Source: Candidatus Latescibacterota bacterium (GTDB taxonomy: Bacteria > Latescibacterota > UBA2968 > UBA8231). From it: a stretch of DNA of 64,000 nucleotides. The notes below the pieces were generated by a model, which was not told the DNA's origin, made no database searches, and saw only the letters and a list, made by a program, of their open reading frames with translations. The position numbers were made by a program, and so were the translations under genes. Below are positions 3,765 to 56,082 of the stretch, in pieces. The stretch covers positions 2,528,001 to 2,592,000 of the forward strand of contig OZ241889.1 in NCBI GenBank assembly GCA_965203355.1. Direction: 5' to 3'. Position 1 is the first letter of the stretch, and each line of letters begins with the position of its first letter.

Positions 3765-3924
3765 TGGATTTGCCTTTATTTGAGGTGAGCCGCTAGTTTG
3801 CTAGCATAAAACATGGTGCGCGCGGCGGCAATTGAGGCGGGTAGGAGCAGGCCCATTTGTGCCGAAGGTGATTGCCCTTAGATTAGGGGCTTCCTTTATC
3901 CGAATCGCAAAGAGAAAATGCAAT

Positions 3925-5319: not shown

Positions 5320-5335
5320 GAGTTAGGAATTGGGC

Positions 5336-6559: not shown

Positions 6560-6609
6560 CCTTTTAATGGATAGTTTAATTGGCTGCGTTTCTGTAGAAA
6601 GGACTACTG

Positions 6610-7716
6610 ATGAGTGATGCCCTAGCCCACCCAACCTACGAAAGCCTCGGTGTGCGTCCCCTGATCAACTGCCAAGGGACTTATACCATTATCAGCGGCT
6701 CGCTGATCTTGCCGGAGGTGCGGCAGGCCATGGTCGAGGCCTCCAAGCAATACGTCCACCTCGACGAACTAATGGAGGCGGTCGGAACGCGCATCGGTGC
6801 GCTGATGCAGTGCGAGTGGGGGCTTGTTACCAATGGTTGCGCCGCGGCGTTGTGCCAGGTTACGGCCGCTTGCGTGGCTGGCACGGATCCCGAGAAAATG
6901 GCGCGCCTGCCCGACACTACGGGCATGAAAAACCAAGTTCTCGTCCAGCCGAGTCACCGCCATGTGTACGATCACGCTGTACGCATGGTCGGCGTCGAAA
7001 TAATTGAGGTCGAGACGCGCGCCGACCTAGAGGCGGCGCTGTCGGACCGCACGGCCATGCTGTTGGTGTTTGGCGATGCGGCCGAGCGCGGAGCGATTTC
7101 GGTGGCGGATATGGCGGCGGCTGGCCGCCGCCGCGGCGTGCCGACGTTTGTCGATGCTGCGGCCGAGCGGCCGGACGCGCCCAACTGGTATCTGGAGCAG
7201 GGAGCTGATGCGGTCGCCTATTCGGGCGGCAAGTGTCTGCGCGGGCCGCAGGCGGCGGGCTTGGTTTTGGGCCGCAAAAAACTGTTGCAGGCGGCCTTCC
7301 TCAACGGGGCACCGCACCACGCGCTGGGGAGGCCGATGAAGGCGGGCAAGGAAGAAATCATGGGGCTGTTGGCGGCGGTGGAGCAGTGGGTGGTGCGCGA
7401 CCACGAGGCCGAGTGGCGGGATTGGGAGCGGCGGCTCTCCGTCATCGCCGACGCCGTGGAAAAGTTTCCCTCGGTGGCGACGCGAGTCACTCAGCCCGGG
7501 CGCTCGAATGTTGCGCCGAACTTGGCGGTGGGCTGGGACCGAGACCAGCTAGCGATTAGCGGCCACGCGCTGGCGCGAAAGCTATCGGCTGGCCAACCGC
7601 GCATCGAAATCTCGGCCCACGACAACGGCTTTGGGATTAATCCTTATATGATGGAGCCGGGCGAGGAAGATATTGTGGCGCGGCGGGTGCGCGAGGTTTT
7701 GGCCGCGGTTGCCTAG
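6610..7716 (+). CDS. SelA-like PLP-dependent enzyme (DgaE / short SelA-related family)
   Basis: LGVRPLINCQGTYT, VDAAAE, YSGGKCLRGPQAAG, GRPMKAGKEEI; 368 aa, lacking the N-terminal tRNA-binding domain of true SelA. Confidence 0.8.
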   Translation: MSDALAHPTYESLGVRPLINCQGTYTIISGSLILPEVRQAMVEASKQYVHLDELMEAVGTRIGALMQCEWGLVTNGCAAALCQVTAACVAGTDPEKMARLPDTTGMKNQVLVQPSHRHVYDHAVRMVGVEIIEVETRADLEAALSDRTAMLLVFGDAAERGAISVADMAAAGRRRGVPTFVDAAAERPDAPNWYLEQGADAVAYSGGKCLRGPQAAGLVLGRKKLLQAAFLNGAPHHALGRPMKAGKEEIMGLLAAVEQWVVRDHEAEWRDWERRLSVIADAVEKFPSVATRVTQPGRSNVAPNLAVGWDRDQLAISGHALARKLSAGQPRIEISAHDNGFGINPYMMEPGEEDIVARRVREVLAAVA

Positions 7717-7719
7717 TGA

Positions 7720-9762: not shown

Positions 9763-10643
9763 TGCGCAAATCCTAGGCGTTGTTGTACAGGCTGAGCCGG
9801 TAGCACGAGGGCTGTGGCCTCATCGCCCGGCACCAGCGCGTACGCGGCAAATTGGTCGCCCGTGTGGGTCAGGCGCAGTTCAAAGCCATCGGTCGTGTCC
9901 CAAGCCGCGAGTAGGCGTTGGGTCTCGCTTTGGCGCAGCGAGTCGGCTTGCGCTTGCACGATTTCCGCTAGGGCCGCGGTGATGATTGGTCCGGCATCGC
10001 TTTGTGCGCGCTCGGGGTTAGGCTCCAAAAGCGGCGCTAGGTGCTCGCGCCAGTAGGCCACGTCTTCCTCTTTCATCTTTAGAAAGGTCCAGGCTTCAGG
10101 CTCGTCTTTGGCCAGCAGATCCTTGTGGAGCTGGTGGAAGAGCGAACCGTCCTCTAGGGCTATTTGTGCGTTGACGAGGGCGCGGAGATGCGATTCTCTA
10201 GCCGGGACGATGGCTTGGGTTAGTAGATAGCGGCCTTGCTCGTAGATGTGTAGGGAATAGGCGAGCGCGCGCCGGATCTCCGGGTCGAAGGGACCGACTT
10301 GGAGGGCGGTGTCGCGCTGGGTGACCGCAAAGAACGCCGCGTGGGTGCCGTGGTACTGGAGTTGGTAGTGGTTTTGCAAAACCGGCAACGGGGTTTGGTC
10401 CGGCTCTAAGGCCGTTTCGGCCAGCGAGTCGGATAGGGCCATGCGAGTCTGCCGACTGGCGATGATGCCCTGCCAAAGCGCCCCGCTTGGCTGGCGTTTG
10501 GCGTTTTGCTGCATCAGGTATTGGCCGATGAAGCGGGCCGCGTACTGGGTTTGGTATTCAATAAGGAAGAGCAAGCAAGCCGCGCAGAAAGGCAGAAACG
10601 CACACTGGGCGATGCGGCTGAGACGTACAAAAAAAGCCCCCAT
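9759..10643 (-). CDS. hypothetical membrane-anchored protein
   Basis: 294-aa ORF with an N-terminal hydrophobic segment; 4-nt overlap with the PBP gene and 4-nt gap to the upstream gene. Confidence 0.7.
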   Translation of the reverse strand: MGAFFVRLSRIAQCAFLPFCAACLLFLIEYQTQYAARFIGQYLMQQNAKRQPSGALWQGIIASRQTRMALSDSLAETALEPDQTPLPVLQNHYQLQYHGTHAAFFAVTQRDTALQVGPFDPEIRRALAYSLHIYEQGRYLLTQAIVPARESHLRALVNAQIALEDGSLFHQLHKDLLAKDEPEAWTFLKMKEEDVAYWREHLAPLLEPNPERAQSDAGPIITAALAEIVQAQADSLRQSETQRLLAAWDTTDGFELRLTHTGDQFAAYALVPGDEATALVLPAQPVQQRLGFAQ

Positions 10644-10647
10644 CTAT

Positions 10648-11631
10648 TTATTCGGCTACCGTAAAGCTCTCAACCCGACTCACCGAATTCTCAATTCCCT
10701 CGGTGTGCGTACTGGCCACGACCTTCCAGTAGTACACCTGCCCGGGTTTGAGCTCGACCAAACGCCCTTCCTTAATGCGACCGGTAAACACGGCCGTGGT
10801 ATCGCTAGTCAGCGGCATGTCCGACACTTCGCCGCTGGTCAGCGAGGTGGTGACGATTACCCGGAATGCGCGCGCCTCGGGCAAGCCACCCCAAGTAAAG
10901 GTCAAAGGTGTAGAGGTCGCTTCCCCGGCGACTGGGGCCAACAGCATGGGCGAGGGCAGCGCGACATCGCTTACTTCCGCGGAGAAGTTGCTTTCCTTGT
11001 CACCGCGATCTAGCGCCGTAATCCGGTAGTAGTACACCGTGCCGACCTCGATTTCCTCGTCAATAAAGCCCGGCATCGACACCTGTACCAGCAAATGCTC
11101 GACGCTCGGGGTAAAACCCTGCTCAGTTGAGCGATACACCCGATAACCAACGAGATCGGTCTCCGAGTTCGCATCCCAGTCGAGGGTGATGTCGAGCCGG
11201 CCGAGTATTTCGAGGTGGTGGGCTGCGATGCTTACCGCAGTCGGCACCTGCGGGCTCAAGCTGTTGAGCGGCTGTCCGCTAATAGCATTCGAAGGGGTGC
11301 TCTCGCCGCCGCTGTTTATCGCGGTTATTCGATAGGTGTACTCCAACTCGTAGCGCAGGCCCTGATCCTTGAATTGGGTCTGGAACGTGGAGTCAATGGC
11401 CACGGCCGCGTCGTCCCCCACCGAGCGATAGACGACGTAGCGCATCTCACCATCGCCCTCGACCGCTTGCCAACTGAGCCATACCTCGCCATCGCCGATG
11501 CGCTCCACGCTCAGGGCGTGCGGTGCCTGCGGGGGATCGACCGGCGCGACGGGCTTGGTGCCCTTTTCGCCGTCGCTGCCGCAGTGCCACAACCCGACGA
11601 CGACAATCGCGGCAAACTTTAGGCGTTTCAT
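10648..11631 (-). CDS. fibronectin type III domain lipoprotein
   Basis: Lipoprotein-like signal (MKRLK...LWHC); FN3 signatures LSW...YVVYRS...YTYRITAIN..GES and LDWD...GYRVYRS...YYYRITALD...ES; GGAGG SD. Confidence 0.85.
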   Translation of the reverse strand: MKRLKFAAIVVVGLWHCGSDGEKGTKPVAPVDPPQAPHALSVERIGDGEVWLSWQAVEGDGEMRYVVYRSVGDDAAVAIDSTFQTQFKDQGLRYELEYTYRITAINSGGESTPSNAISGQPLNSLSPQVPTAVSIAAHHLEILGRLDITLDWDANSETDLVGYRVYRSTEQGFTPSVEHLLVQVSMPGFIDEEIEVGTVYYYRITALDRGDKESNFSAEVSDVALPSPMLLAPVAGEATSTPLTFTWGGLPEARAFRVIVTTSLTSGEVSDMPLTSDTTAVFTGRIKEGRLVELKPGQVYYWKVVASTHTEGIENSVSRVESFTVAE

Positions 11632-32400: not shown

Positions 32401-34568
32401 CCAAGGCCGACTTTGCACCGCTCGCTCTGCACTATAATGGGCAGGTCCTGCAGGTCCATGTGATGAAGGAGTTTGCCGAGCAGGGACTTGAGGCCATGGC
32501 TGATGCCCTGCGACTGGCTATGGACTACTTCAATCTAAAGGAGGGGGATTTCCTAAGCCGTTGGCTACCCGATCGGGACAAGGAGCTTGCGCGGCAGACC
32601 ACGCCCGAATCGTGGCGGGCCATCGTCGAAAGCCTGAAGAATCCCATCCAACAACGCATTGTCGCGGATGATCGGGAGCAGACCAACGTGCTGGTACTGG
32701 CAGGTCCCGGCTCTGGCAAGACGCGCGTACTCGTGCATCGCATCGCCTACCTAGTGCGTGCAAGGCGCGAAAATCCCCGCGGCATCCTCGCCTTGGCCTA
32801 CAACCGGCACGCGGCGGTCGAGATCCGGCGACGCCTCGTGGACTTGATCGGAAGCGACGCCCGCGAAGTGACCGTGCTCACCTGTCACGCGTTGGCCATG
32901 CGAATAGTCGGCATCAGCTTCCAAGAGCGGGAAAGGAAACGGCTTGACGACGGTGCATTTCGGGCGGTGCTGCGCCAAGCAATAGCGTTGTTGCGCGGAG
33001 AGGGTCTGGAGCCGGAGGAAGCGGACGATCAGCGGGAACGGCTCCTTGCGGGCTTCCGCTGGATACTCGTAGATGAATACCAAGACATCGGCGCGGATCA
33101 ATACGAGTTGATATCGGCCTTGGCTGGTCGGACCCTAGAGGATGAAGAGCGCAAACTCACGCTCTTTGCAGTAGGCGACGACGATCAGAATATCTACGCC
33201 TTTAACGGTGCTTCGGTGGAGTTCATTCGCCGTTTTGAAGCAGATTATGGGCCCAAGCCCACCTACCTGATCGAAAACTACCGTTCCAGCGGCCACATCA
33301 TCACAGCGGCCAATGCGTTGATTGAGTCGGCTCGACAACGAATGAAAACGGGCCATCCCATCCGCATTGACCGGATGCGTACGAAGAATCCACCTGGCGG
33401 CGACTGGAGTGCGTTGGATTCGGTCGCTCAAGGTCGGGTGCAGATTCTGCCAGCGTCCCCCGATCCAGTCTCCCAGGCGCAAGTTGCGCTGGCCGAATTG
33501 CAGCGCCTCGCTACCCTTTCGTCGGGCTGGGATTGGTCCAAGTGCGCGGTGATCGCCCGCGAATGGAAATATCTGGATTCGGTGCGCGCCGGCTGCGAAG
33601 TCCACCGCATCCCGGTGCAGATGGGAAATGAAGAAATCCCCAGCTTCTGGCACCTGCGAGAAACCCGCATGCTTGTTGAATGGCTGCGCGGACGGGAGCC
33701 GCGGATCGCGAGCAGTGCTGACATGAGGGGCTGGCTGGCCGCGCAAACGCCCGGCCCATGGAACGACCTGCTGCGGCAAGCCTTGGACGAGCACTCCTTA
33801 GAAACCAATGCTGCGGAAATGCCAGTGGATCACTTCATTGAATGGCTGGCCGAGTGGGGGCGAGACATCCGCCGCCGCCAGCGCGGGCTCTTGCTGCTGA
33901 CCGCACACCGCGCCAAGGGATTGGAGTTTGACCACGTGGCCGTGCTCGATGGAGGCTGGAACAATGTCGATAAGAGCGAGGACCCGGACGCGCCGCGCCG
34001 GCTCTACTATGTGGCCATGACGCGCGCCCGGCAGACTCTGGCGCTTGTGCGTTTTCGCGGATCGCGCCCGGCCAGAAGTCGCACTCGGCCTGATTTCGCC
34101 AAAGAGCCTGAACCACCGGCGTATTGGGAGCACTCGCTACCGCATGCCTTTCCGCATAACGGTTCAGTTTTACACCGCACGTCTGACGCTTTACAGCCGG
34201 AAACCCCGAAACTCTCACGTCAATATCGGCGACCCAGCCTGCGCGAAGTCTATCTGAGCTTCGCGGGGCATTGCCGCGCCAACCATCCGGTGCATCGTGC
34301 GATTGCTGCTCTGGCGCCCGGCGATCCGCTAAAAACGCGGATTGCCCAAACTGGATCTTGGGAATTGCTGAACCGGTCAGGGACGGTGGTGGGGCGTCTG
34401 GCCCGAGCGTTTGAGCCTCCACCAGGAACGCGATGTCGATCCGCCGAGGTTTTTGCCATCGTGGCTTGGAGCCGCGAAGCGTCGGAGCCTCAGTACCGCG
34501 ACCGCATACAATGCGATGCTTGGGAGGTAGTGGTGCCGGAATTGGTGTTTGAGCCAGCAGGCGAGTAA
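29403..34568 (+). CDS. RecQ-family helicase fused to an N-terminal DEDD-like exonuclease and a C-terminal UvrD/Rep helicase
   Basis: LDLE / GHNLIDFD / VDTL (exonuclease); PTGTGKS, DEAH, TATA, FGMGIDKPDVR, QEAGRAGRD (RecQ); AGPGSGKT, DEYQD, GDDDQNIY, NYRS, HRAKGLEF, YVAMTRA (UvrD). Confidence 0.92.
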   Translation: MDSNLLLRGLSLDLEVGKQDRRIHAFAAVRPDVDRPLVFRDGDLATALAALDEFADGAAFLLGHNLIDFDRPHLKAAKPDLQLLKLPAVDTLRLNPLAFPRNPYHHLVKHYQDGPLKRGRRNDPELDARIALEVFDDQQSALRDAPRGLLKAWHWLTGTGPDGAGFDAVFDAIRCAPRPADAAASAVIRDQLAGITCQNRGRDIVENATQSGWPLAYALAYLSVAGGNSVMPPWVRHQFPAAGALVRQLRDRSCGEADCDWCRERHDPRKELKRWFGFDDFRPEPLNSDGRPMQQAIVEAAMAGEHVLGILPTGTGKSICYQIPALSRYYKTGALTVVISPLVALMADQVAGLEARGVDSCVAINGLLSVPERADALDRVRLGDAGILIISPEQLRNRSLRRALDQREIGAWVLDEAHCLSKWGHDFRPDYRYVGRFIREKAEPDPIPPVLCLTATAKPDVIADIKQHFRDDLGTGLKIFDGGAQRTNLEFTVVPTTEAEKFAHIHQILMADLPPDAPGGAIVYCATQRQTKEVAEFLQDKEIAADYFHAGLPPETKKNVQQCFILGELRVIAATNAFGMGIDKPDVRLVIHADIPGSLENYLQEAGRAGRDRQMARCVLLYMSDDVDWNFRQLARSRLTRREIHGVLRALRNLDRRKRMKGEIVATAGEILGADDEKVFERDSATDDTRVRTAISWLEETVLLTREDNQVQVFPSSLRVDSVQEARSRLAKASLTDDYRQRLLRVAETLIDADPDEGISTDELMGVSGLSAEGVRGALYDLERLGVSSNDTALTAFVHAGVERNSRKRFDEAAELETALIAHLREAAPDMGKGDTSTLHLRVAAQTLRDAGLVDPLPERLQHILRSIARDGRGEKGGTGSIGMQKRDSETVRVTLRREWSDMAELAARRRDGAKLLLDHLLACLPSGSRGTDLLAETTLGKLLEAITADLFFKSRNPEKLLDRALLWLHEQEVIRLHKGLAVFRQAMTIRLAEEKRGFAKADFAPLALHYNGQVLQVHVMKEFAEQGLEAMADALRLAMDYFNLKEGDFLSRWLPDRDKELARQTTPESWRAIVESLKNPIQQRIVADDREQTNVLVLAGPGSGKTRVLVHRIAYLVRARRENPRGILALAYNRHAAVEIRRRLVDLIGSDAREVTVLTCHALAMRIVGISFQERERKRLDDGAFRAVLRQAIALLRGEGLEPEEADDQRERLLAGFRWILVDEYQDIGADQYELISALAGRTLEDEERKLTLFAVGDDDQNIYAFNGASVEFIRRFEADYGPKPTYLIENYRSSGHIITAANALIESARQRMKTGHPIRIDRMRTKNPPGGDWSALDSVAQGRVQILPASPDPVSQAQVALAELQRLATLSSGWDWSKCAVIAREWKYLDSVRAGCEVHRIPVQMGNEEIPSFWHLRETRMLVEWLRGREPRIASSADMRGWLAAQTPGPWNDLLRQALDEHSLETNAAEMPVDHFIEWLAEWGRDIRRRQRGLLLLTAHRAKGLEFDHVAVLDGGWNNVDKSEDPDAPRRLYYVAMTRARQTLALVRFRGSRPARSRTRPDFAKEPEPPAYWEHSLPHAFPHNGSVLHRTSDALQPETPKLSRQYRRPSLREVYLSFAGHCRANHPVHRAIAALAPGDPLKTRIAQTGSWELLNRSGTVVGRLARAFEPPPGTRCRSAEVFAIVAWSREASEPQYRDRIQCDAWEVVVPELVFEPAGE

Positions 34569-34702
34569 TTCGACGACAGCCCTTGGTGTGCGGGGATTGC
34601 GTCCACAATTGGCACCGCATCGCCCGCGCCGGAAAAGTTGACAGCCAACGCGGGAACGGCCTTATTTGCGCCCGCCAACCCAATAGCTAAAGGAGTCTGA
34701 AA

Positions 34703-35254
34703 ATGCCGGATGTTATCGTCGTCGGAGATGGGCCGGGTGGATTGAGCGCGGCGCTCTTTCTCGCCAAAAACGACCTGCGCGTTACCGTCTTTGGCCAAGA
34801 CAAAACGCTCATGCACAAAGCCCTGTTGTACAATTATTTGGGCATTCCCAAGATCGCCGGACCCGAGTTCCAGCAGATTGGCCGCCAACAAGTGCGCCAC
34901 TTTGGCGGGGACATTCAGGACATTGAAGTCAGCCGCGTCGAAAAGGGCGATGGGGGCTTTGTCGTTGAAACCGCCGACGGCCAAAGCCATCAAGCCCAAT
35001 ATCTGATCTTGGCTACCGGGCCGAGCAACCCGCTGGCCGAGAGCTTGGGCGTGGCCAAAGAAGCCGATGGATTGGTCGCCGACCGCCATGGCCGCACCGC
35101 GGTCGCCGGGCTATACGTCATTGGCTGGAGTACTCGTCTGAAGAAGATCCAAGCCATTATCTCGGCTGGAGACGGAGCCTGCGCCGCGCTGGACATCCTG
35201 TCGGCCGAGGCCGGCGAGGACATCCACGACTTCGATCGGATCGAAGACGAGTAG
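34703..35254 (+). CDS. short FAD-dependent oxidoreductase (thioredoxin-reductase-like)
   Basis: DVIVVGDGPGGLSAA, LILATG, QAIISAGDG; AAGGAG SD. Confidence 0.85.
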   Translation: MPDVIVVGDGPGGLSAALFLAKNDLRVTVFGQDKTLMHKALLYNYLGIPKIAGPEFQQIGRQQVRHFGGDIQDIEVSRVEKGDGGFVVETADGQSHQAQYLILATGPSNPLAESLGVAKEADGLVADRHGRTAVAGLYVIGWSTRLKKIQAIISAGDGACAALDILSAEAGEDIHDFDRIEDE

Positions 35255-39024: not shown

Positions 39025-39054
39025 TTGCCCAAAAAGTGCGTCGCCCTCTATATT
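39025..39054 (+). promoter_or_regulatory. candidate sigma70 promoter of the hom-(R-M)-apgM-asd operon
   Basis: TTGCCC, 18 nt, TATATT in the AT-rich divergent intergenic region. Confidence 0.4.
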
Positions 39055-39070
39055 TAAAACTTTTAACTTG

Positions 39071-40390
39071 ATGCGAAACAAGGAATTGAGCAAAGACATG
39101 CCAGTAGGAGTGGGATTGATTGGTTTGGGCACGGTCGGCAGCGGCGTGGTCGAGCTGTTGCAGAACGCGCCCGCGTCGTTGCGGCGGCGCAAGCACGTGG
39201 ATTTTGCATTGCGGAGCGCGGCGGTGCGCGACTTGGACAAGCCGCGCAGTCTCGCCATCGCACCGGAGCTGTTGACGGCAGACGCCGGCGCGGTCGTCGC
39301 CGACCCGCAGGTGCAACTGGTGGTGGAATTGACGGGTGCGCCCCCGGCTTTTGAGTGGGTGAGCGAGGCCCTGCGACAAGGCAAGGATGTGGTGACGGCC
39401 AACAAGGCCCTGCTTGCCGAGCGGGGTGAGGAGCTTTTTGAACTGGCACTGGCCAATGGAGCAGATTTGATGTTTGAAGCCAGCGTCGCGGCCGGCATCC
39501 CCATCATCCGCTCGTTGCGCAACGGCTTGGTCGCCAATCGGGTCGAGTCCCTGTACGGCATTCTCAACGGCACTACGAACTACATGCTCACGCGCATGAG
39601 TCGCGGCGCGGGCGACTACGCCGCCGTCCTCAAAGAAGCCCAAGCCCAAGGCTACGCCGAACCGGACCCCACTATGGACGTGAGCGGCATGGACGCCGCG
39701 CAGAAGTTGGCCATCCTCTGCCGCATTGCCTTCCACTGCACGGGCACGGGCCGCGACGTATTTTGCGAAGGCATCGAGCCGATCGAGAGCCGGGATATTG
39801 AATACGCCCGCGAGCTGGGGTATGCGATCAAGTTGCTGGCTATTGCCAAGCAACAGGACGGGCGCGTCGAGGCCCGGGTGCATCCGGCCATGGTGCCAAA
39901 AGACGCGCTATTGGCCAACATCCACGATGAGTTCAACGCCATTCAGGTGCAGGGGTCTGCGGTGGGGCCGCAAGTGTTTTCTGGCCGCGGTGCTGGGCGA
40001 CTGCCCACGGCCAGCGCTGTGGTGGCGGATATGGTCGAGCTGGTCGAGCGCAAGGCCGCCGGTGCGAGCACGTCCATTGGCGACATGGTTTTGGGCGAGG
40101 ACGCCGTCTCGGTTGTGCCCATTGAGAATGTGCCGATGCGCTACTTTATGCGCGTCTTAGTCCGCGACCAGCCCGGGGTGCTCGCTGGTATCTCGCGCAT
40201 TTTGGCCGAGGAGCGCATCAGCATTGCCTCGGTCATCCAAAAGGAGCGCGACTTTGAGGGCGGCTTTGTGCCGCTGGTCATCGTCACGCACGAGGCGCGC
40301 GAAGCCGCGATGCAGCGGGCGCAGCAGGCCGCGGCCACACTCGATGCGGTACAAGGGGCGGTCAAGCTCATCCGCATGGAGGATCTCTAA
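39071..40390 (+). CDS. hom: homoserine dehydrogenase with C-terminal ACT domain
   Basis: GLIGLGTVGSG, VVTANK, FEASVAAGIP, ILNGTTNY, GYAEPDP..DVSG.DAAQK, GAGRLPTASAV, DQPGVLA (ACT); start may be 39098. Confidence 0.95.
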   Translation: MRNKELSKDMPVGVGLIGLGTVGSGVVELLQNAPASLRRRKHVDFALRSAAVRDLDKPRSLAIAPELLTADAGAVVADPQVQLVVELTGAPPAFEWVSEALRQGKDVVTANKALLAERGEELFELALANGADLMFEASVAAGIPIIRSLRNGLVANRVESLYGILNGTTNYMLTRMSRGAGDYAAVLKEAQAQGYAEPDPTMDVSGMDAAQKLAILCRIAFHCTGTGRDVFCEGIEPIESRDIEYARELGYAIKLLAIAKQQDGRVEARVHPAMVPKDALLANIHDEFNAIQVQGSAVGPQVFSGRGAGRLPTASAVVADMVELVERKAAGASTSIGDMVLGEDAVSVVPIENVPMRYFMRVLVRDQPGVLAGISRILAEERISIASVIQKERDFEGGFVPLVIVTHEAREAAMQRAQQAAATLDAVQGAVKLIRMEDL

Positions 40391-40501
40391 CGTGCGCTAC
40401 GTGGTGTTGGTGCCCGACGGGGCGGCCGACTATCCGCTCGACGAACTGGACGGGCAGACGCCGTTGGAGGTGGCCGCTACGCCCTGCATGGATCGCTTGG
40501 C
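40380..40501 (+). repeat. left copy of a 122-bp direct repeat (hom stop plus 5' end of apgM) flanking the R-M cassette
   Basis: Identical to 42912-43033 except T40471 versus C43003. Confidence 0.97.
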
Positions 40502-40535
40502 CAGAGAGGAGAATCTTTATGTTGAAACAATCTGA
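40392..40535 (+). pseudogene. truncated duplicate of the apgM 5' end (47 codons)
   Basis: [41 protein letters not shown], then diverges and stops at 40535, overlapping the endonuclease start. Confidence 0.85.
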
Positions 40536-42911
40536 TGTGTTACACTCATGCTGTGATGGGGATAACTGGATTAGAGAAGCTCTGTGTAAAACGGAACCAT
40601 ATATATACGAAGAAGTAGAAAAGTCTTTGGCAACCAAACTATTAGATAAAATTTATCTTGATGCTGATGCTATCGAAAAACCCCTCCACCTAGCGGCAGC
40701 TTTTGACTTGCTAGTAGCAGCAGAGTACTACCGCACTGTCGCTTCTGAAGGATGGGGGCATTGCCTCGATAAAGGTTGTTCGCTTCTATTCTATCCGTAT
40801 GTCAATGCCTGTCCAAGATGTTTACTCCAAGGCCAATTTGTGTTTCACAAGGCCAATAAACCGAAGTCTGGTTCGATTGGTTTAGCAACCTCAAAACTTT
40901 TAGCTCTTTTTTTGCAAAAACTGCTTCATAAGAAGGGGTCTCCCATTGAGGTCGTGAAGGGAAATGAGCCAGTAGATTTGGTTTTTAGAGATAACTCATC
41001 GGGTTCCGAAGTGGTCTTCTTTGCAGAGATTAAAGCAGCACCTCTTTTCACGTTACCATTGGCTATTAAAGACCAGAGATCGGCTACAGCAGTGGAGCAT
41101 TCAATGGAAACTACTCAGCATGAGGAGATATATTGTACAGGACTTTACGATTCTGAAATAGGCATATATTTACCATACAAAAAGGATGAGGTTACTTGGG
41201 GCGGACAGATTTTCCCATTAGGAAAAAAGGTTGATCAAGAAGATGAGGCATGGGCATACAATGGATTAATTAATCTTTTAGACTCAGATCCTTCATTTAT
41301 AGAGGGTTATTTTGAATTCTGGAAAGAGGCATTTGAATGCTATGGTAGCCGCCTTAAGAAAAACCCATACTGGTTTACTAATGCCTGTGGAGGTCCTGAT
41401 CCAAGACCTATTACTTGGCCAAAAAGAAAAGGAACAGGTTATGAGACTATTTCTGACGGCAAAACAAGTGTGGGTATGGATAGGACAGATGATCTTAAAA
41501 AAGCTATCTATCAAGTATTGAAGATTGGGACTGCTGGTAAGCCCACGTGTACCTTTAAGTATAAAGTGGGCATTGTGACGAACATTCCCGCAGTTAGGCA
41601 TCATGGAGAGTACATAGAGCCAGTTAAAGATATAATTTGGGCAAGGGACGAATCAGCATCTGCTCAATACGTTGGTGATTTAGCTAAAGATAAAGGGCTG
41701 TTTAATCTCTTTGATGGTATAGTTTCTTTGACTGAGGTTTCAGCTCGTGATGAATGGATTAAGGCTACATTCACTTTTTGATATGAGGAGGTATATTGTG
41801 GTGGAAGTTTTTAATCATCAACCCCGTAAGGTTGGAATGGAAGTCCAACGTAGGATCAATGCACTAGGTATTGGGCAGAAAATGCAAGATTTGCCAGAGG
41901 AACTATGGCATAAAAGCTTCCGTTACTATGTCAAAGAAGATCCTAGTCGCAAAGGGGGACCAAATCTGAGAATGATAAGACTTGATCCAGACCAGCCTTC
42001 TCTAACAGTAACAGGTTATATTTTCAATAAGTTTGTTCATCCATATGAGGACCGATTTATTACGCCGAGAGAAGCTGCGAGATTACAAGGATTTCCTGAT
42101 GACCTAGAATTTAAAGGGGTGCTCACTAGTGTTCAGAGTCAAGTCGGTGATGCAGTCCCAATCGAACTCGGTAGATCCATCTTTGAGTCACTAATGATTC
42201 TTTTAAAGAAACATTGGCCGAAGAAGAAGATTTTCAAAACTCTTAGTTTGTTTAGTGGAGCAGGTGGATTAGATATAGCCTCAGAGAGAATAAAATTTAA
42301 AGATAATAGTCATTTTGAGCTAGTCGCTTGTATTGAAATTGAAGAGGATCGCTGCGATACACTAAAAGGATATTTTAAAGATAAAGTAAAAGTATTTAAC
42401 GTAGATATTTCAGAAGTAACTACTGACACTTTACTTAGCACATGCAAAGTGTCAAAAGATGACATTTGGGTAATTTATGGCGGTCCTCCTTGCCAGTCTT
42501 TTAGCCAAGCAGGAAAACAAAAAGGAACCGACGATTCAAGAGGAATATTGGTTTTTGAATTTATACGTTTTCTAAAGGAAATAAATCCTCCTTACTTTGT
42601 CATGGAAAATGTGGCAAATATAAATGGTATTGAGAAGGGGTTTTTACTTAAAAAAATAGTACAGAAAATGAACAAAATAGGTTATAATGTCGAGAGTGGT
42701 ATACTAAATTCCGTAGATTATGGTAACGCACAGAAGAGAAGGAGATTTATCTGTTTGGGTTCAAAAAAAGGATGGCCAATAGCTAAATTGCCTTTACCGA
42801 CGCACTGTGAACAGGAAAATTTGCTTGGGTTACCACTTTTCAAAACAGTAGGTGAAGCGTTAGAGGGATTACCTTCACCAGAGTGCGAGAAAATTGCCCT
42901 AGAAAATGGGA
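40502..42911 (+). mobile_element. horizontally acquired AT-rich restriction-modification cassette (no integrase or transposase) bounded by a long target duplication
   Basis: Abrupt drop in GC and changed codon usage between the two 122-bp repeats; contains only the R and M genes. Confidence 0.85.
40519..41781 (+). CDS. putative type II restriction endonuclease (PD-(D/E)xK, BssHII-like)
   Basis: PVDLVF...AEIKAAP catalytic pattern; GMDRTDDLKKAIYQVLK block that I recall from BssHII-family enzymes; adjacent to a C5-MTase; GAGGAG SD. Confidence 0.75.
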   Translation: MLKQSDVLHSCCDGDNWIREALCKTEPYIYEEVEKSLATKLLDKIYLDADAIEKPLHLAAAFDLLVAAEYYRTVASEGWGHCLDKGCSLLFYPYVNACPRCLLQGQFVFHKANKPKSGSIGLATSKLLALFLQKLLHKKGSPIEVVKGNEPVDLVFRDNSSGSEVVFFAEIKAAPLFTLPLAIKDQRSATAVEHSMETTQHEEIYCTGLYDSEIGIYLPYKKDEVTWGGQIFPLGKKVDQEDEAWAYNGLINLLDSDPSFIEGYFEFWKEAFECYGSRLKKNPYWFTNACGGPDPRPITWPKRKGTGYETISDGKTSVGMDRTDDLKKAIYQVLKIGTAGKPTCTFKYKVGIVTNIPAVRHHGEYIEPVKDIIWARDESASAQYVGDLAKDKGLFNLFDGIVSLTEVSARDEWIKATFTF

Positions 42912-42922
42912 AGGATCTCTAA
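41801..42922 (+). CDS. DNA cytosine-5 methyltransferase with circularly permuted motif order (M.BssHII-like)
   Basis: TRD, motif IX (TPREAARLQGFPD) and X (QVGDAVP) precede I (SLFSGAGG), IV (GGPPCQSFS), VI (ENV) and VIII (QKRRR); AGGAGGT SD before GTG 41798/41801. Confidence 0.92.
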   Translation: MEVFNHQPRKVGMEVQRRINALGIGQKMQDLPEELWHKSFRYYVKEDPSRKGGPNLRMIRLDPDQPSLTVTGYIFNKFVHPYEDRFITPREAARLQGFPDDLEFKGVLTSVQSQVGDAVPIELGRSIFESLMILLKKHWPKKKIFKTLSLFSGAGGLDIASERIKFKDNSHFELVACIEIEEDRCDTLKGYFKDKVKVFNVDISEVTTDTLLSTCKVSKDDIWVIYGGPPCQSFSQAGKQKGTDDSRGILVFEFIRFLKEINPPYFVMENVANINGIEKGFLLKKIVQKMNKIGYNVESGILNSVDYGNAQKRRRFICLGSKKGWPIAKLPLPTHCEQENLLGLPLFKTVGEALEGLPSPECEKIALENGKDL

Positions 42923-43033
42923 CGTGCGCTACGTGGTGTTGGTGCCCGACGGGGCGGCCGACTATCCGCTCGACGAACTGGACGGGCAGACGCCGTTGGA
43001 GGCGGCCGCTACGCCCTGCATGGATCGCTTGGC
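42912..43033 (+). repeat. right copy of the 122-bp direct repeat
   Basis: Matches 40380-40501; supplies the MTase stop codon and the intact apgM start. Confidence 0.97.
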
Positions 43034-44114
43034 GCGCGAAGGGGCCGGGGGCTTGGTACAGATGATCCCGGCCGAGCGGCACCCAGGCAGCGACATCGGC
43101 AACCTCGAAATTTTCGGCTACGACAGCCGCATGTACTACACGGGCCGGGCGCCGTTGGAAGCCGCGAGCATGGGGGTCGATTTGGGCGCCGACGGGGTGG
43201 CTTTCCGCCTGAACCTGATCTACGGAGAGGACGACGTGCTGGTCGATTACAGCGCCGGCCACATCGCCAGCCAAGAAGCGGCTGAGCTGGTGGGGGCCTT
43301 GGCGGCTGAGTTGGGCGGGCCGACTTTGCGCTTCTATCCCGGGGTCGGCTATCGCCACTTGTTGGTGTGGGATCGCGGCCCAGAAGCCGTGGAAACCTAT
43401 CCGCCGCACGACATCATGGGCGAGTCCATGGCCGCGCATGAGCCGACGGGCGTCGGGGCCGATAAAATCTGCGCTCTTATGGACGCGGCCGGTCCCATTC
43501 TCGCGGCCTCACCGGTCAATGCCGCCCGCACCGCCCGCGGCGAGCGGCCAGCCAACGCGATATGGCTCTGGGGGGCCGGGCGCGCCCTGCGGTTGGCTTC
43601 TCTGTCGGAGCGCTACGGCTTGCAGGGCGGCGTTATCTCGGCTGTTGACTTGGTGCGCGGGATCGGCAAAAGCGCGGGCTTAGAGGTCATTGAGGTGCCC
43701 GGTATTACCGGATACCTCGATACCAACTACGAAGGCAAGGCCGAATACGCGCTGGCCGCCTTGCAGCACGCTGATTTTGTCTATGTCCACGTCGAGGCTC
43801 CTGACGAAGCCGGGCACAACGGCGACTCACGGGCCAAGGTGCAGGCCATTGAGGATTTTGATGCCCGCGTCGTCGGCCCGATTTTGGCGGGACTAGCGTC
43901 GATGGGGCCGCATCGAGTGCTGCTGACTCCCGACCACCGCACGCCCATTGCGCGGCGCACCCACAGCCGCGAGCCCGTGCCCTTTGTGTTGTGGGGGACG
44001 GGTATTGAGGCCGACTCGATGCAAGCCTATGGGGAGCGGGCGGCCGAGTGGGGTAGTATGCAGGTGGAGCACGGACATGTATTGATGGATTATCTAACGG
44101 AGAAATGCAGGTGA
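42924..44114 (+). CDS. apgM: cofactor-independent phosphoglycerate mutase family protein (ApgM; also proposed as a homoserine kinase)
   Basis: VPDGAAD...TPLEAA.TP.MD, PGSDIGN, GRAPLEAASMG, YRHLL, HVEAPDEAGH, TPDHRTP; GTG start 1 nt after the TAA. Confidence 0.9.
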   Translation: MRYVVLVPDGAADYPLDELDGQTPLEAAATPCMDRLAREGAGGLVQMIPAERHPGSDIGNLEIFGYDSRMYYTGRAPLEAASMGVDLGADGVAFRLNLIYGEDDVLVDYSAGHIASQEAAELVGALAAELGGPTLRFYPGVGYRHLLVWDRGPEAVETYPPHDIMGESMAAHEPTGVGADKICALMDAAGPILAASPVNAARTARGERPANAIWLWGAGRALRLASLSERYGLQGGVISAVDLVRGIGKSAGLEVIEVPGITGYLDTNYEGKAEYALAALQHADFVYVHVEAPDEAGHNGDSRAKVQAIEDFDARVVGPILAGLASMGPHRVLLTPDHRTPIARRTHSREPVPFVLWGTGIEADSMQAYGERAAEWGSMQVEHGHVLMDYLTEKCR

Positions 44115-45133
44115 CCAAAGCGTACAACGTAGCTATTATGGGCGCGACCGGCGCCGTAGGACAGGTGTTGTTAGAAATACTCGCCGAGCGCGCATTTCCC
44201 GTCGGCGAGTTGCGGCTGTTGGCCTCAGCCCGCTCGGCGGGCCGCTCCATTTCCTTTGATGGCCGCTCGATTCAGGTGCAGGAGTTAAAGGAGGATTCCT
44301 TTGGCGGCGTGGATATCGTCTTGGCTTCGGCCGGGGGCCACTTGAGCAAGCGGTTTAACCCGCACGCGGTCGCTGCGGGCGCGGTGGTCGTCGATAACAC
44401 GTCGGCCTATCGCCTGGACCCGGACGTGCCGCTGGTGGTGCCCGAGATCAACCCCGAGGATTTGGCGGCGCATCGCGGCATCATCGCCAATCCGAATTGT
44501 TCGACGATCATCATGGACCTGGCGATCTGGCCGCTCTATCAGCGGCGGCGGATCAAGCGCATCGTGGTCTCGACCTATCAGGCCGTTAGTGGCGCGGGGG
44601 CGCGGGCCATGGAGGAGTTAGAGACGCAAACGCGGCAGGTGCTCGCCGGGCAGGAGGCTGAACCGGCGGAATTCCCGCACCCGATCGCCTTTAACTTGTT
44701 TTCGCACGACTCGGCTGTTGGGCCGGAAGGGTATTGCGAAGAAGAACTAAAAATGATGCGCGAGACCCGCAAGATGTTCCACGACGACGCGCTGCAGATC
44801 TCGGCCACGACCATCCGCGTACCCGTGCTGCGGGCGCATTCCGAGGCGATCAACGTGGAGTTTGCCGAACCCTTTCCGGCAGCCGAGGCCGAAGCTGTTT
44901 TGGCGCAGGCCGCGGGCGTGCGGATAGTACACGATCCCGAGCAGAATTATTTCCCCATGCCGATTGAAGCCTCCGGCTGCGACGAGGTACTGGTCGGGCG
45001 CATTCGCCAGGATATTTCGCGGCCCGACGGCACTGGGCTGGACTTGTGGGTCAGCGGCGATCAGTTGCGCAAGGGCGCGGCCCTAAACGCCGTACAAATC
45101 GCCGAGCATCTCATCGCCCGCCAATTGCTATAA
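44105..45133 (+). CDS. asd: aspartate-semialdehyde dehydrogenase
   Basis: GATGAVG, VDNTSAYR, IANPNCSTI, STYQAVSGAG, RVPVLRAHSE, DQLRKGAALNAVQIAE. Confidence 0.96.
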   Translation: MQVTKAYNVAIMGATGAVGQVLLEILAERAFPVGELRLLASARSAGRSISFDGRSIQVQELKEDSFGGVDIVLASAGGHLSKRFNPHAVAAGAVVVDNTSAYRLDPDVPLVVPEINPEDLAAHRGIIANPNCSTIIMDLAIWPLYQRRRIKRIVVSTYQAVSGAGARAMEELETQTRQVLAGQEAEPAEFPHPIAFNLFSHDSAVGPEGYCEEELKMMRETRKMFHDDALQISATTIRVPVLRAHSEAINVEFAEPFPAAEAEAVLAQAAGVRIVHDPEQNYFPMPIEASGCDEVLVGRIRQDISRPDGTGLDLWVSGDQLRKGAALNAVQIAEHLIARQLL

Positions 45134-48901: not shown

Positions 48902-50485
48902 ATGTCCAAACCCAAACTTGTGTTTTACCACGACGGTCGGCATCCGCTGATTTACATGTACGAGCCGCCGATCCAGCCGGAGGAATACGAACAGGGCGTG
49001 GACGAACTGTTGGGGACGCCGGTTGAGGCCATCATGTTCTGCCTCGGCGATGGCCGCACTATGCTGCACGACACCGAGGTGGGGGAGTTGTGGGGCCACA
49101 ATGTGAAGCGGTGGCCGCATCTGATTTTTCGCCGTGCCCACCAAAACGCCCGCGACTTAATTCGCAAGGGACGAGATCCCCTGCGCTTGATTTGCGACCG
49201 CGCTCACCAGTACGGCAAGCTGGTCTATCCGACGCTGTTGGTGCAGCAGGGCCGCGGGCCGCGAGAAGAGGACGTGCGCTGCTCGGACTTCCGCTTTGAC
49301 AACGCCCATCTTGAGATCGGGGCGCGAGACGGTGTGCCCGCCGATTTTCCTGGCTACACTTGTCTCGACTTTAAGCACCAAGCGGTCCGCGACGAGCGCT
49401 TTGCCCTGATTGCCGAGACGCTAGAAAAATATCCGGTTGATGGCTTTGAACTGCAGATGAACTACCAGCCCTACTACTTCCATCCTGACGAGGTTGCGGC
49501 GGGTCGCAAAATCATGACCGAGTGGGTGCGCCAGGTGTATGGCGCGGTCAAGCGGCGCGGGGCGCAACGCGAGTTGGCCATCCGCATTCCCCACAGCATC
49601 CGAGGGTGTTATGCCGTCGGCATGGACGTCGAGGCGTGGCTGCGCGAAGGGCTGGTTGACGTGCTGATCGGCGAGGCGTTTTCCGGCCCGGAACTGCTGG
49701 ATTCGACCCTTGATTTCCGGCCCTTGGTTGCCGCCGCCGCTGGCACGGGTTGTCGGGTATTCGCGGCTTTGCAAAGCCACGTGGACTCGGATCGCTTGGG
49801 GGAGGCGACTATTGAACTGGTGCGCGGGGCTGCTTGCAATTACTGGGCGCAGGGCGTCGATGGCCTGTACTTGGCGGACTGGTTTGGGAACTGGCCGTAT
49901 CCGGCTTCTTTTTACGAAAAGCTGCGGGAATTGCCCTATCCAGAAGTCATGGCCGCCCGCGACAAAATTTACTACGCACCGACCCCGACCGGGCGTTACC
50001 CCAATCCCCCCACCGAGCCCGGGACGACCCTGCCGTTACCGGCCTATTTGCAAAAGGGCCGCAAGGCTTTGATCACCCTAGCGGTCAGCGACGATCTACG
50101 GCGTTGGGCCAAAGTCGGTCGGGTCCACGAAGTGTTGCTGCGGGTGCGGGTGATGGGCCACACCGAGCGCGACCGGCTAAAATTCTATTTCAACGGGCGA
50201 GAGTTGCCCGCCGGTCTGTTGCGCAAAATCAACGAGATGTACCGGATGTCGGCCCCGCGCTACCGCACGGGATCGGGGTACTGGTATGCGTTTAAGTTAG
50301 ATGCCAAACACTGGCCGAAAAAAGGGAATAACACGCTCAAAGTCGAATTGGTGCGGCGCGACGCGCAGGCCCTACCGGAGATTTTCGTGCGCGATGTGGA
50401 ACTCGATATCAAATACCTGATGGGGCGCAATTTCCACCGAGGCCAAGACGTGGATTTGGGGCCGAGCGAACCATCGGGTATATGA
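48902..50485 (+). CDS. putative glycoside-hydrolase-like TIM-barrel protein (GHL10/DUF187-like)
   Basis: LDFKHQAVRDERF...YPVDGFEL, MTEWVR, DVEAWLREGLVD, GVDGLYL; beta-rich C-terminal domain. Confidence 0.6.
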   Translation: MSKPKLVFYHDGRHPLIYMYEPPIQPEEYEQGVDELLGTPVEAIMFCLGDGRTMLHDTEVGELWGHNVKRWPHLIFRRAHQNARDLIRKGRDPLRLICDRAHQYGKLVYPTLLVQQGRGPREEDVRCSDFRFDNAHLEIGARDGVPADFPGYTCLDFKHQAVRDERFALIAETLEKYPVDGFELQMNYQPYYFHPDEVAAGRKIMTEWVRQVYGAVKRRGAQRELAIRIPHSIRGCYAVGMDVEAWLREGLVDVLIGEAFSGPELLDSTLDFRPLVAAAAGTGCRVFAALQSHVDSDRLGEATIELVRGAACNYWAQGVDGLYLADWFGNWPYPASFYEKLRELPYPEVMAARDKIYYAPTPTGRYPNPPTEPGTTLPLPAYLQKGRKALITLAVSDDLRRWAKVGRVHEVLLRVRVMGHTERDRLKFYFNGRELPAGLLRKINEMYRMSAPRYRTGSGYWYAFKLDAKHWPKKGNNTLKVELVRRDAQALPEIFVRDVELDIKYLMGRNFHRGQDVDLGPSEPSGI

Positions 50486-54850: not shown

Positions 54851-55324
54851 ATGGACGTAGATACACTGTACCGTCGCTACGGACCGATGGTCATGCGTCG
54901 TTGTCGGCAGCTTCTGCGCGACGAAGACCAAGCACTCGACGCCACGCAAGATGTCTTTGTGCGGCTCTTGACGCGGCGCGACCGCCTGCAGGACGACGCG
55001 CCCTCTAGCCTGCTCTATCGCATGGCCACCAATCTCTGCCTCAATCGCATCCGCGATACCCGGCGGCGGAAGACCACGGCCGACTCGACGCTGTTGGAGC
55101 AGATAGCCTGCTGGCAGGACGCCGAGGGCCGGATAGATGCGCGTGCTGCGCTGGCCAAGCTCTTTGGCCAACAGCTCGAATCAACGCGCACGATGGCTGT
55201 CTTATACTACGTGGACGGCATGACCTTGGCCGAGGTAGCCCAGGAAGTGGGCATGTCCGTGTCTGGCGTACGCAAGCGGCTGCTCGGCCTGCGCGCATCG
55301 CTGCAAGAGATGGAGAAGCCATGA
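54851..55324 (+). CDS. ECF-type sigma-70 family RNA polymerase sigma factor
   Basis: Region 2 LYRRYGP.V...DATQDVF...LYRMATNLCLN; region 4 GMTLAEVA..VGMSVSGVRKRL; 157 aa. Confidence 0.93.
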   Translation: MDVDTLYRRYGPMVMRRCRQLLRDEDQALDATQDVFVRLLTRRDRLQDDAPSSLLYRMATNLCLNRIRDTRRRKTTADSTLLEQIACWQDAEGRIDARAALAKLFGQQLESTRTMAVLYYVDGMTLAEVAQEVGMSVSGVRKRLLGLRASLQEMEKP

Positions 55325-56082
55325 ACCAGCAAGACAAGCGCCCCATAAGCGACTACCAGCTAGAGCGCTATCTGCTGCGCGAGGGAACGGACGACGAGTT
55401 GGCGGATTTGGAACGCCGGTTGGCGGACGATCCAGCGCTCGCCCAGCGGCTAGCGGCCCTAGCGCACTCCAACGAGGAATTGCATCGGCGCTACCCACCC
55501 GAGTGGATGCGCGGCCAGATCGAGCTAAAACTCAAGCGGGCGCCGGGTCGGCCCGTCCAGCGAGCTTGGAGTGGGTATCGCCTTTGGGCCGTGCCAGCCG
55601 TGGCCCTGATCCTGGCGGTGGTGGCGGTGCCCACTCTCCTCGATCGAGAAGCCCCGGAAACCCCGGCGACGCGCAGCAAGGGCCGCGAACAGGAGCCGCG
55701 CTTGTTGGTTTTCCGCCAACGGGCCAGCGGGGTGGAACGCCTACAGGACGAAGCATTGGCCCACAGTGGGGACGTGGTACAGCTCGCCTACCGCTCGGGT
55801 GGCTTGCCGTACGGGGCGATCCTATCGGTCGATGGGCGCGGTACTGTAACTCAGCACCTGCCAGCGACTGGCGTGGTGGCCGTGCCGCTGGCGGCGCAAG
55901 ACACCCTCGATGTTGCCTACGAACTGGACGACGCGCCCCGGTGGGAGCGGTTTTATTTGCTGGCGGCGGATCGTCGATTTGGCCTAGCGGCGTTTAAGGC
56001 CAAACTCGCGGCTGGCGATGTGGCGTTGGCCGATGATGTCCGTCTGTTCCGATTTACCGTAAAAAAACCGAGTCAGCCTTAA
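55321..56082 (+). CDS. putative anti-sigma factor (single TM, extracytoplasmic DUF4384/'ActD-like' domain)
   Basis: ATGA overlap with the sigma gene; helical N-terminus (LERYLL.E), TM LWAVPAVALILAVVAV, TRSKG linker, GDVVQLAY...ILSVDGRG.VT.H.P...YELDDAP.WERF domain. Confidence 0.75.
   Translation: MNQQDKRPISDYQLERYLLREGTDDELADLERRLADDPALAQRLAALAHSNEELHRRYPPEWMRGQIELKLKRAPGRPVQRAWSGYRLWAVPAVALILAVVAVPTLLDREAPETPATRSKGREQEPRLLVFRQRASGVERLQDEALAHSGDVVQLAYRSGGLPYGAILSVDGRGTVTQHLPATGVVAVPLAAQDTLDVAYELDDAPRWERFYLLAADRRFGLAAFKAKLAAGDVALADDVRLFRFTVKKPSQP

Follow-up and report, generated by a model that had tools for sequence, protein, structure and literature searches.

Organisation of the hom/apgM locus

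We analysed a 64-kb stretch of contig OZ241889.1 from Candidatus Latescibacterota bacterium, called the window here, and all coordinates are positions in this window. Between hom and apgM, in a predicted threonine-pathway operon, lies a foreign restriction-modification (R-M) unit of two genes, a candidate restriction endonuclease (R) and a C5-cytosine (m5C) methyltransferase (M). The unit is flanked by two direct copies of a 122-nt sequence that spans the hom/apgM junction. The features of the locus are as follows (aa, amino acids; ORF, open reading frame).

39025..39054, plus strand: promoter-like site TTGCCC-18-TATATT, from a consensus scan only (9/12 matches); a candidate promoter for hom-R-M-apgM-asd
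39068..40390, plus strand: hom, predicted homoserine dehydrogenase (Pfam PF00742 Homoserine_dh, PF03447 NAD_binding_3 and ACT; NCBIfam PRK06349, positions 3-428 of 430)
40380..40501, plus strand: left 122-nt copy (repeat search and four-way junction alignment)
40392..40535, plus strand: apgM stub of 47 codons (Pfam Metalloenzyme fragment)
40502..42911, plus strand: foreign DNA (junction alignment and G+C content)
40519..41781, plus strand: R, Type II restriction endonuclease candidate, 420 aa (PADLOC PDLC03440 REase_II)
41798..42922, plus strand: M, predicted circularly permuted C5-cytosine methyltransferase, 374 aa (ORF 41747-42922; Pfam PF00145, TIGR00675)
42912..43033, plus strand: right 122-nt copy, which supplies the ..DL* end of M and the working apgM start
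42924..44114, plus strand: apgM-type phosphoglycerate mutase homologue and proposed homoserine kinase (PRK04200, 530.9 bits, positions 2-394 of 395; TIGR02535, 499.8 bits)
44105..45133, plus strand: asd, predicted aspartate-semialdehyde dehydrogenase, overlapping the end of apgM (Pfam PF01118, PF02774)

A repeat search returned the two 122-nt copies as a single family of direct repeats, 121/122 identical and 2532 nt apart from start to start. The sole mismatch is T40468 in the left copy against C43000 in the right copy. A 51-nt core of the repeat occurred exactly twice in the 64-kb window, a result seen in 0 of 100 shuffles. The G+C content was 0.34-0.44 between the repeats and 0.61-0.66 outside them. 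The limits of the insert were set by a four-way alignment of both junctions from the window and from a second genome, L001 (OZ220721.1, a metagenome-assembled genome (MAG) presented as a complete chromosome and labelled Candidatus Latescibacterota). Both ends were also compared with L080, a locus of a Latescibacteria MAG that holds the nearest homologue outside the hom/apgM site. The foreign segment measured 2,410 bp with about 39% G+C, 23-26 points under that of the host.

The insert starts with 17 nt that include a GAGGAG ribosome-binding site; R follows, and a spacer of 16 nt separates it from M, which has no stop codon of its own. Each repeat copy begins with the 3'-terminal 11 nt of hom (..GAG GAT CTC TAA), followed by a single base and by 110 nt of apgM counted from its GTG; the stop of hom and the start of apgM thus lie next to each other there (TAA-C-GTG) without overlap. 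The left repeat opens a 47-codon apgM stub, from GTG 40392 to the stop at 40533-40535, with 37 native codons and 10 codons read from the insert. This stub overlaps the ATG of R at 40519 by 17 nt, and its stop lies 14 nt beyond that ATG. At the other end, M terminates in ..ENGKDL*, using GAT CTC TAA of the right repeat, and hom itself ends in ..RMEDL*. The 3' boundary of the insert is the position of M's natural stop codon: M ends in ..CCT GTA GAT TGA in L080, in ..CTA GAA AAT GGG AAG GAT CTC TAA in the window and in ..ATA GAA GGA GTG GAG GAT CTC TAG in L001. One base separates the M stop from the apgM GTG, the same spacing as between hom and apgM in the left copy. The apgM start given by the ORF finder, ATG 42906, is insert DNA lying in frame 18 nt upstream of the native GTG 42924. 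Comparison with L001 suggests that the ancestral duplication was about 125 nt long and started 3 nt further left.

The hom, apgM and asd genes are all intact in the window. The repeat identity, the drop in G+C and the gene layout bear out the first-pass annotation of this DNA, which had placed an R+M cassette between two long copies of the hom/apgM junction, with no host gene lost. The 47-codon apgM stub running into the endonuclease start and the KDL* end of M taken from the right copy, both part of that description, were also found. In the working copy of apgM, the native GGAGGA ribosome-binding site now reads GAAGGA in the window; L001 retains GGAGGA.

Mobility genes and mode of insertion

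Mobility genes were sought between 24.8 and 58.2 kb, about 14 kb on each side of the cassette. This region has 24 non-nested ORFs of at least 150 aa, of which 22 were scanned with Pfam. No integrase, transposase or phage family was found in these 22 ORFs, so that the earlier description of the cassette as integrase-free holds within the scanned set. Neighbours with matches belonged to ordinary host families (formate-dehydrogenase-like subunits, a large helicase, oxidoreductases, peptidases and an antiporter). Four of the 22 had no Pfam match, namely R and the ORFs at 34490-35089, 48902-50485 and 55321-56082. No tRNA gene was present in the 64-kb window. An earlier paper on long target duplication in Helicobacter pylori is reportedly that of Nobusato et al. 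from 2000.

Insertion with long target duplication has been found in many phyla and for R-M systems of Types I-IV (Furuta, Abe and Kobayashi 2010, PMC2853133, here and below in the sections available to us). Among the criteria of that report are the presence of R and M in the insert, an insert under 20 kb, a target repeat over 30 bp and no mobility gene; a further one is an empty-site genome whose single repeat copy aligns with the two flanks. It also describes a gene fusion made at such a junction, and proposes the involvement of double-strand breakage in this mode of insertion. The present locus has R and M homologues in an insert of 2,410 bp, a 122-nt duplication of the hom/apgM junction, and no linked mobility gene or tRNA. 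By the first four of these criteria, its sequence identifies it as an insertion with long target duplication. The first-pass annotation had called this mode known in H. pylori, which is true as far as stated but understates the many phyla and the four R-M types covered by PMC2853133.

Direct repeats flanking an insert could also be attachment (att) sites, in which case the unit would have entered by site-specific integration with the integrase elsewhere or lost; R-M units linked to tRNA genes and integrases likewise yield long direct repeats (PMC2853133). However, the insert holds R and M only, neither an integrase or transposase family in the scanned ORFs nor a tRNA in the window was found, and the repeat is ordinary coding sequence. 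Other loci of the R family carry repeats that differ in length, sequence and target (33, 80, 81 and 325 nt). We therefore regard integration of this kind as highly improbable.

Away from the cassette, the window has a second, milder dip in G+C (0.45-0.52) at 2000-3000. It lies in the 5' part of a minus-strand ORF (216-3161, 981 aa) with Big_1 and other Ig-like domains.

Comparison with a second species

L001 was the only close relative retrieved, and its hom-apgM site is filled. Over 8,788 bp it aligns collinearly with the window, at 90.8% identity, and has the same cassette, the same site, both junctions and the same gene order. Amino acid identities were 94.3% for hom, 89% for R, 91% for M, 92.9% for apgM and 92.1% for asd. 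At the nucleotide level, identity was 92.5% for hom, 91.6% for the cassette, 88.4% for apgM and 90.0% for asd. The usual species boundary is about 95% nucleotide identity. At about 91%, well under this value, L001 is judged from its sequence to be a different species from the source of the window.

The first-pass annotation had called the insertion recent. Because L001 shares the cassette, the site and the junctions, and because the cassette has diverged as much as its flanks (91.6% against 88.4-92.5%), this part of the claim did not hold up. The comparison indicates that the insertion predates the split of the two species, or that the whole filled allele moved between them long ago.

We also considered an assembly artefact, either a chimeric join or a collapsed or expanded repeat, since mis-assembly had been named in advance as what would overturn the described structure. 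The two independent assemblies, that of the window and OZ220721.1, agree on the structure and show the differences expected of separate species. All reading frames of the window are continuous and under purifying selection. No sign of an artefact was found, and we regard it as the least credible of the explanations weighed in this study. In L001, apgM carries an in-frame TAG (..PILAGL*SMGPH..) where the window has Ala, which reflects either a pseudogene or an error in the MAG assembly.

An attempt to date the insert by its amelioration was set aside. With L080 as the outgroup, AT>GC against GC>AT changes numbered 58:43 in the window and 36:23 in L001, a weak net drift toward G+C, and L080 (75% identity) is too distant to rely on.

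Concerted evolution of the repeats

We compared the two repeat copies within and between the window and L001. Across the 122 repeat columns, six sites were concerted, with both copies of one genome differing from both copies of the other, and no site was orthologous. The remaining differences were singletons, one in the window and seven in L001, together with two single-base insertions in the left copy of L001. Identity between the copies was 121/122 within the window and 115/122 within L001, as against 110-114/122 between genomes; the repeat pair of L001, taken on its own, was 129 nt long and 93.8% identical. One of the 1-nt insertions in the left copy of L001 frameshifts the apgM stub, and the stub peptide is not conserved. 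Because the left-copy stub is not conserved as a protein, purifying selection cannot explain the identity of the repeats.

Since six sites were concerted and none was orthologous, the pattern indicates sequence exchange between the repeats since the two species separated, in the lineage of the window very recently. Read in this way, the repeats are near-identical through gene conversion and not through youth. These results also bear on a recent, strain-level arrival of the cassette, which would account for repeats that are 121/122 identical and for an insert that, at 39% G+C, is still far from the host. Under such an arrival, the sharing of the cassette and junctions with L001 at about 91%, a cassette as diverged as its flanks, the six concerted sites and the lower repeat identity in L001 would all be unexpected, and we consider it very unlikely. 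The locus is a warning for dating: its repeats are 99% identical and its insert is 23-26 G+C points low, yet the event would predate about 9% nucleotide divergence.

The repeats recombine yet the cassette persists. This would fit selection for its retention, through a defence benefit, post-segregational killing or both.

Selection on R and M

The ratio of non-synonymous to synonymous divergence (dN/dS) between the window and L001 was 0.096 for M, similar to those of hom (0.095), apgM (0.074) and asd (0.123). For R it was 0.42 (48 non-synonymous and 30 synonymous differences), which is below 1 (Fisher p 0.001). The reading frames of R and M are intact in both genomes. These comparisons indicate that M is under strong and R under weaker purifying selection.

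The dS of R was 0.12, against 0.27-0.47 in M and the host genes, while its dN of 0.05 was not reduced. In a block at about 40.2-42.0 kb, which covers R and the first ~200 nt of M, third-position identity to L001 was 89-94%, against 71-84% elsewhere. The block may be a later recombination tract between lineages or reflect constraint on synonymous sites. Conserved internal or antisense promoters were considered as a cause of the low synonymous divergence. The promoter-like hexamers are common to the window and L001, as is all of R, and they are not kept in L080; the pattern does not discriminate.

The same block is what would be expected if the filled allele had spread between related lineages, wholly or partly, by homologous recombination in hom and apgM. 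However, divergence is equal in the flanks, both repeats and the remainder of M, and a simple recent transfer predicts a reduced dN as well as a reduced dS in R. With two genomes for comparison, we hold such a spread to be rather unlikely and favour inheritance of the insertion from a common ancestor.

R is a candidate Type II restriction endonuclease

R matched PADLOC model PDLC03440 REase_II over its full length (E 9.7e-105, model positions 9-417 of 417). Searches of R against Pfam, NCBIfam and PDB sequences gave no match, and PADLOC alone names it. Among 5,377 candidates scored, 691 homologues had E <= 0.001, and the best 120 of these 691 were all unnamed or called 'hypothetical protein'. 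One distant match each at 31% identity was found on a plasmid (Acinetobacter) and in a Vibrio 'phage' record, which gave no lead to a vehicle for R.

E150-P151-x-D153 and E170-x-K172, a PD-(D/E)XK-like motif, were invariant in 26 aligned R sequences. The AlphaFold2 model of R (pLDDT 83.7, pTM 0.87) has a long helix at 117-138 and strands at 144-147, 154-158 and 165-172. In this model, the motif residues lie on or beside the consecutive strands 154-158 and 165-172, after the helix. This helix-strand order is that expected for a PD-(D/E)XK core, and the fold is probable on the model. A Foldseek search of the model against the PDB gave no significant structural neighbour (best E 0.26; R.SwaI ranked 31st, E 1.0), so that the assignment of a nuclease fold is based on the motif and on the order of the strands. 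Homologues of R adjoin M genes of the BssHII subgroup in two Firmicutes loci (L023 and L030), an indirect sign that R may be homologous to R.BssHII. These results link a large unnamed protein family to the role of a Type II restriction enzyme.

M is a predicted permuted methyltransferase of the BssHII family

M matched Pfam DNA_methylase PF00145 (E 2.5e-63) and TIGR00675. In an alignment with M.HaeIII (1dct), ORF residues 74-149 matched 242-320 (motifs IX-X) and residues 165-372 matched 3-188 (motifs I-VIII). This order identifies M, at the level of sequence, as a naturally circularly permuted m5C methyltransferase with motifs IX-X before I-VIII, as in M.BssHII. M.BssHII was the first natural m5C methyltransferase of this kind (Xu et al. 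1997, as cited in the available part of PMC5944983). The true start of M is most likely GTG 41798, which follows GAGGAGG 16 nt after the R stop, agrees with the N-termini of homologues and gives the 374-aa product; ATG 41783 is an alternative.

We aligned 19 M homologues drawn from the best 120 of 7,282 matches. All 19 were equally permuted, starting with ..EVFNHQPR.. and ending in ..GLPSPEYEEVPVD or similar, and they terminate 4-5 residues before M of the window. The strings ..IGQKMQDLPEELWH.. and ..PSLTVTGYIFNKFVHPYENRFIT.. of M were found by eye in the M.BssHII rows of the supplementary alignment of PMC5944983. M of the window was 53-56% identical to the homologue P0114, which by eye is near-identical to the printed M.BssHII stretches. 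By these similarities, the R-M pair is placed in the BssHII family. The few circularly permuted m5C methyltransferases known gain further natural examples from this work.

The use of GCGCGC avoidance as evidence of specificity was dropped. The window contained 58 GCGCGC sites against 126 +/- 11 in shuffles, but this depletion (observed/expected 0.59-0.61) was no stronger than that of other G+C palindromes (CGCGCG 0.54) and is not specific to GCGCGC. We also considered whether a cut by the enzyme itself made the junction, since the right repeat of the window ends within a GCGCGC (43032-43037). This was ruled out, as L001 reads GGCCCGCGAGG there and both left copies read TTGGCC, which points to a later synonymous change.

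Other hexamers outside 40502-42911 were far more depleted than GCGCGC. AAGCTT (expected 10.8-16.3) and CAGCTG (expected 13.1-20.5) were near-absent palindromes with 0 occurrences each, GTCGAC occurred 3 times (expected 28-42) and CTCGAG 4 times (expected 22-24). These depletions suggest past exposure to other restriction systems.

Flanking repeats recur in the R family

We scanned a collection of species-representative genomes with the R alignment, which gave 194 R relatives, of which 80 loci were kept. In 67 of the 80 loci, the gene after R was a permuted M, as in the window. In the other 13 (L013-L015, L020-L022, L024, L027, L028, L033-L035 and L069), R was followed by an ORF of 543-601 aa instead; all five of these ORFs that were scanned were N6_N4 amino-methyltransferases.

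Direct repeats of at least 28 nt and at least 85% identity were then sought within 450 nt upstream and 750 nt downstream of each unit. Such repeats flanked 6 of the 74 R-M loci that could be tested and, as a control, 2 of 245 mock units set at other places in these loci (odds ratio 10.7, Fisher p 0.0025). One of the six, L001, is the same event as in the window. L038 and both mock matches lie in repeat-rich cyanobacteria and carry less weight. In L033 (Acidobacteriota, 3874-7027), 2 nt separate the metH stop from the start of R, and the 3' end of metH is present again downstream of M as a copy of 80-103 nt. L035 (Acidobacteriota, 4401-10937) has the order metH-R-M with R 2-3 nt past the metH stop, and the right copy is absent. 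In L010, from a Chloroflexi MAG, a second copy of the final 33 nt of a TauE-family gene, with its stop codon, lies downstream of M; the unit there has a G+C content of 0.45 and the flanks 0.61-0.64. Further candidates are L029 with an 81-nt repeat and L034 with a 325-nt repeat. By these sequences, the R family repeats its habit of flanking duplication, at the metH 3' end in Acidobacteriota and at the 3' end of a TauE-family gene in the Chloroflexi MAG.

On a rough ORF map, 53 loci had a co-directional ORF upstream of R, and in 13 of these the distance to R was at most 30 nt. A preference for amino-acid operons was rejected, as only two contexts fit (hom/apgM and metH) and the 14 upstream neighbour ORFs scanned were miscellaneous (NurA, a glycosylase, a radical SAM protein, a transporter, one DDE transposase and others). 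The pair of L080 (6428-12788) has a Schlafen/AlbA_2 gene on one side and a GmrSD Type IV restriction gene on the other, a setting that looks like a defence island.

Two further loci have features of another kind. In L047 (Hormoscilla), a 938-nt direct repeat, 97.5% identical, brackets the R-M unit at 5445-6367 and 10687-11624 and possibly represents two insertion sequences. In L075, 27 nt separate R from the end of a DDE_3 transposase ORF upstream.

Transcription of the inserted unit

Only 17 nt of foreign DNA precede the ATG of R. In L080, a TTGATA-17-TATAAT site lies about 45 nt upstream of R, ahead of the ribosome-binding site; the insert of the window lacks it and has too little sequence before R to hold one. 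Because only 17 nt lie upstream of R and the insert ends at the lost stop of M, the insert probably has no promoter of its own.

The hom, stub, R, M, apgM and asd frames form a chain with gaps or overlaps of 1-17 nt, and a sequence scan found no convincing terminator between hom and asd. Since the chain of frames is unbroken and has no convincing terminator, read-through from a promoter upstream of hom is the simplest reading and would be the most likely source of transcription. The first-pass annotation had stated that the cassette borrows the hom promoter. This is plausible in view of the 17-nt leader and the missing L080-type site, and we infer it from these features.

Proposed history of the insertion

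Taken together, we consider it likely that the locus is a promoterless R-M unit of the BssHII family that entered the hom/apgM junction in an ancestor, independently of a recombinase and with a long target duplication. Under this model, the threonine-pathway operon would have received the unit between hom and apgM before at least two Latescibacterota-like species diverged from a common ancestor. A linear R-M fragment, cut down to its coding core, would have been joined to the chromosome at two points about 125 nt apart. The left copy would have retained the end of hom, and the right copy would have returned hom's last codons, stop and ribosome-binding region ahead of apgM. Because hom kept its end and apgM regained its upstream region, the duplication would have been harmless to the host. 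M, lacking its own stop, would end at the duplicated hom stop, one base before the apgM GTG, as hom originally did, and transcription would come from the hom promoter. The unit would then have been inherited through speciation and retained by its defence benefit, by the killing of cells that lose the pair, or by both.

Several observations weigh against this model. Promoter-like matches numbered 11 in 35.5-47.5 kb against 5.0 +/- 2.4 in shuffles, and four plus-strand matches lie within the AT-rich cassette; cassette-internal promoters are possible. No genome with an empty hom-apgM site was seen, the sole genome scan having been keyed on R homologues, and the polarity of the insertion rests on composition and on the duplication structure. 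The high dN/dS and low dS of R, with a dN that is not reduced, could reflect a later exchange of the block or decaying constraint on R. Some of the L001 differences may be errors, given its MAG status and the in-frame stop in apgM. The R model has no significant Foldseek neighbour in the PDB, and GCGCGC specificity would be taken from the M family only. To our knowledge, the biochemical mechanism that makes long target duplications is not known.

A more far-reaching proposal is that the duplication is a maintained, recombining structure that keeps the promoterless R-M unit as a permanent passenger of the operon. The duplication would restore translational coupling at the split host genes, with M, fused to the terminal codons of hom, now coupled to apgM. 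Repeated unequal recombination or cycles of amplification and collapse would keep the flanks identical, with loss selected against. We offer this proposal tentatively, as a possibility that we think somewhat doubtful at present. If it is true, flanks that evolve together in more than one species would give the amplification and recombination step of the proposed R-M 'life cycle' its first trace in comparative data.

At single-base resolution, the locus illustrates the splicing of a selfish or defensive gene pair into an essential biosynthetic operon without a recombinase and with nothing broken. It also illustrates, for a poorly known phylum, that an insertion of this kind can outlast speciation.

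Comparison with known systems

The mode of insertion has been known in many bacteria since 2010 (PMC2853133), and BssHII-like permuted methyltransferases are also known (PMC5944983), as far as the available sections of these two reports go. Beyond this, the study adds a new host lineage, a very tight splice into an operon, an insertion that has lasted across species, several flanking duplications within a single R family and, last, concerted evolution of the flanking repeats. We make no claim that this last point is unpublished, since prior reports of it were not searched for.

The locus resembles the insertions of PMC2853133, in its available sections, in having both R and M inside an insert of less than 20 kb, a repeat of more than 30 bp and no mobility gene. 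The G+C content of the insert is under that of the host in both cases, and a gene fusion at the junction has been reported there as well. It differs from them in that the event is fixed in two species and is not a strain polymorphism, and in that the repeats evolve in concert. The insert is also trimmed to a ribosome-binding site, R and M, with the 1-nt spacing of the operon restored, and the host belongs to a Latescibacterota-like uncultured lineage.

R-M units flanked by long direct repeats amplify, and a 'virus-like life cycle' has been hypothesised for them in the Discussion of PMC2853133. The present locus has the same structure of repeat, R-M unit and repeat, and the recombination between its repeats is the trace expected of unequal crossing-over or of amplification followed by collapse. 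In contrast to the amplifying units described in that Discussion, each of the two assemblies holds a single copy of the unit.

Post-segregational killing by Type II R-M systems is reviewed in PMC3874152, of which a part was available. The locus is like these systems in carrying a Type II pair of R and M, whose loss through the repeats would leave decaying methylation. It differs in that R of the window is less constrained than M, which would also fit a gradual loss of restriction. The long retention of both genes despite recombining repeats is consistent with post-segregational killing.

A further related system is the BssHII R-M system. The two share the motif order of M, with IX-X followed by I-VIII and both termini in the variable region, and M has long stretches identical to the M.BssHII rows in the variable-region half and around motifs IX-X. 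They differ in that M of the window is only about 53-56% identical to P0114, the homologue that by eye is M.BssHII-like, and in that the same R family is paired with an ORF other than permuted M in 13 of 80 loci.

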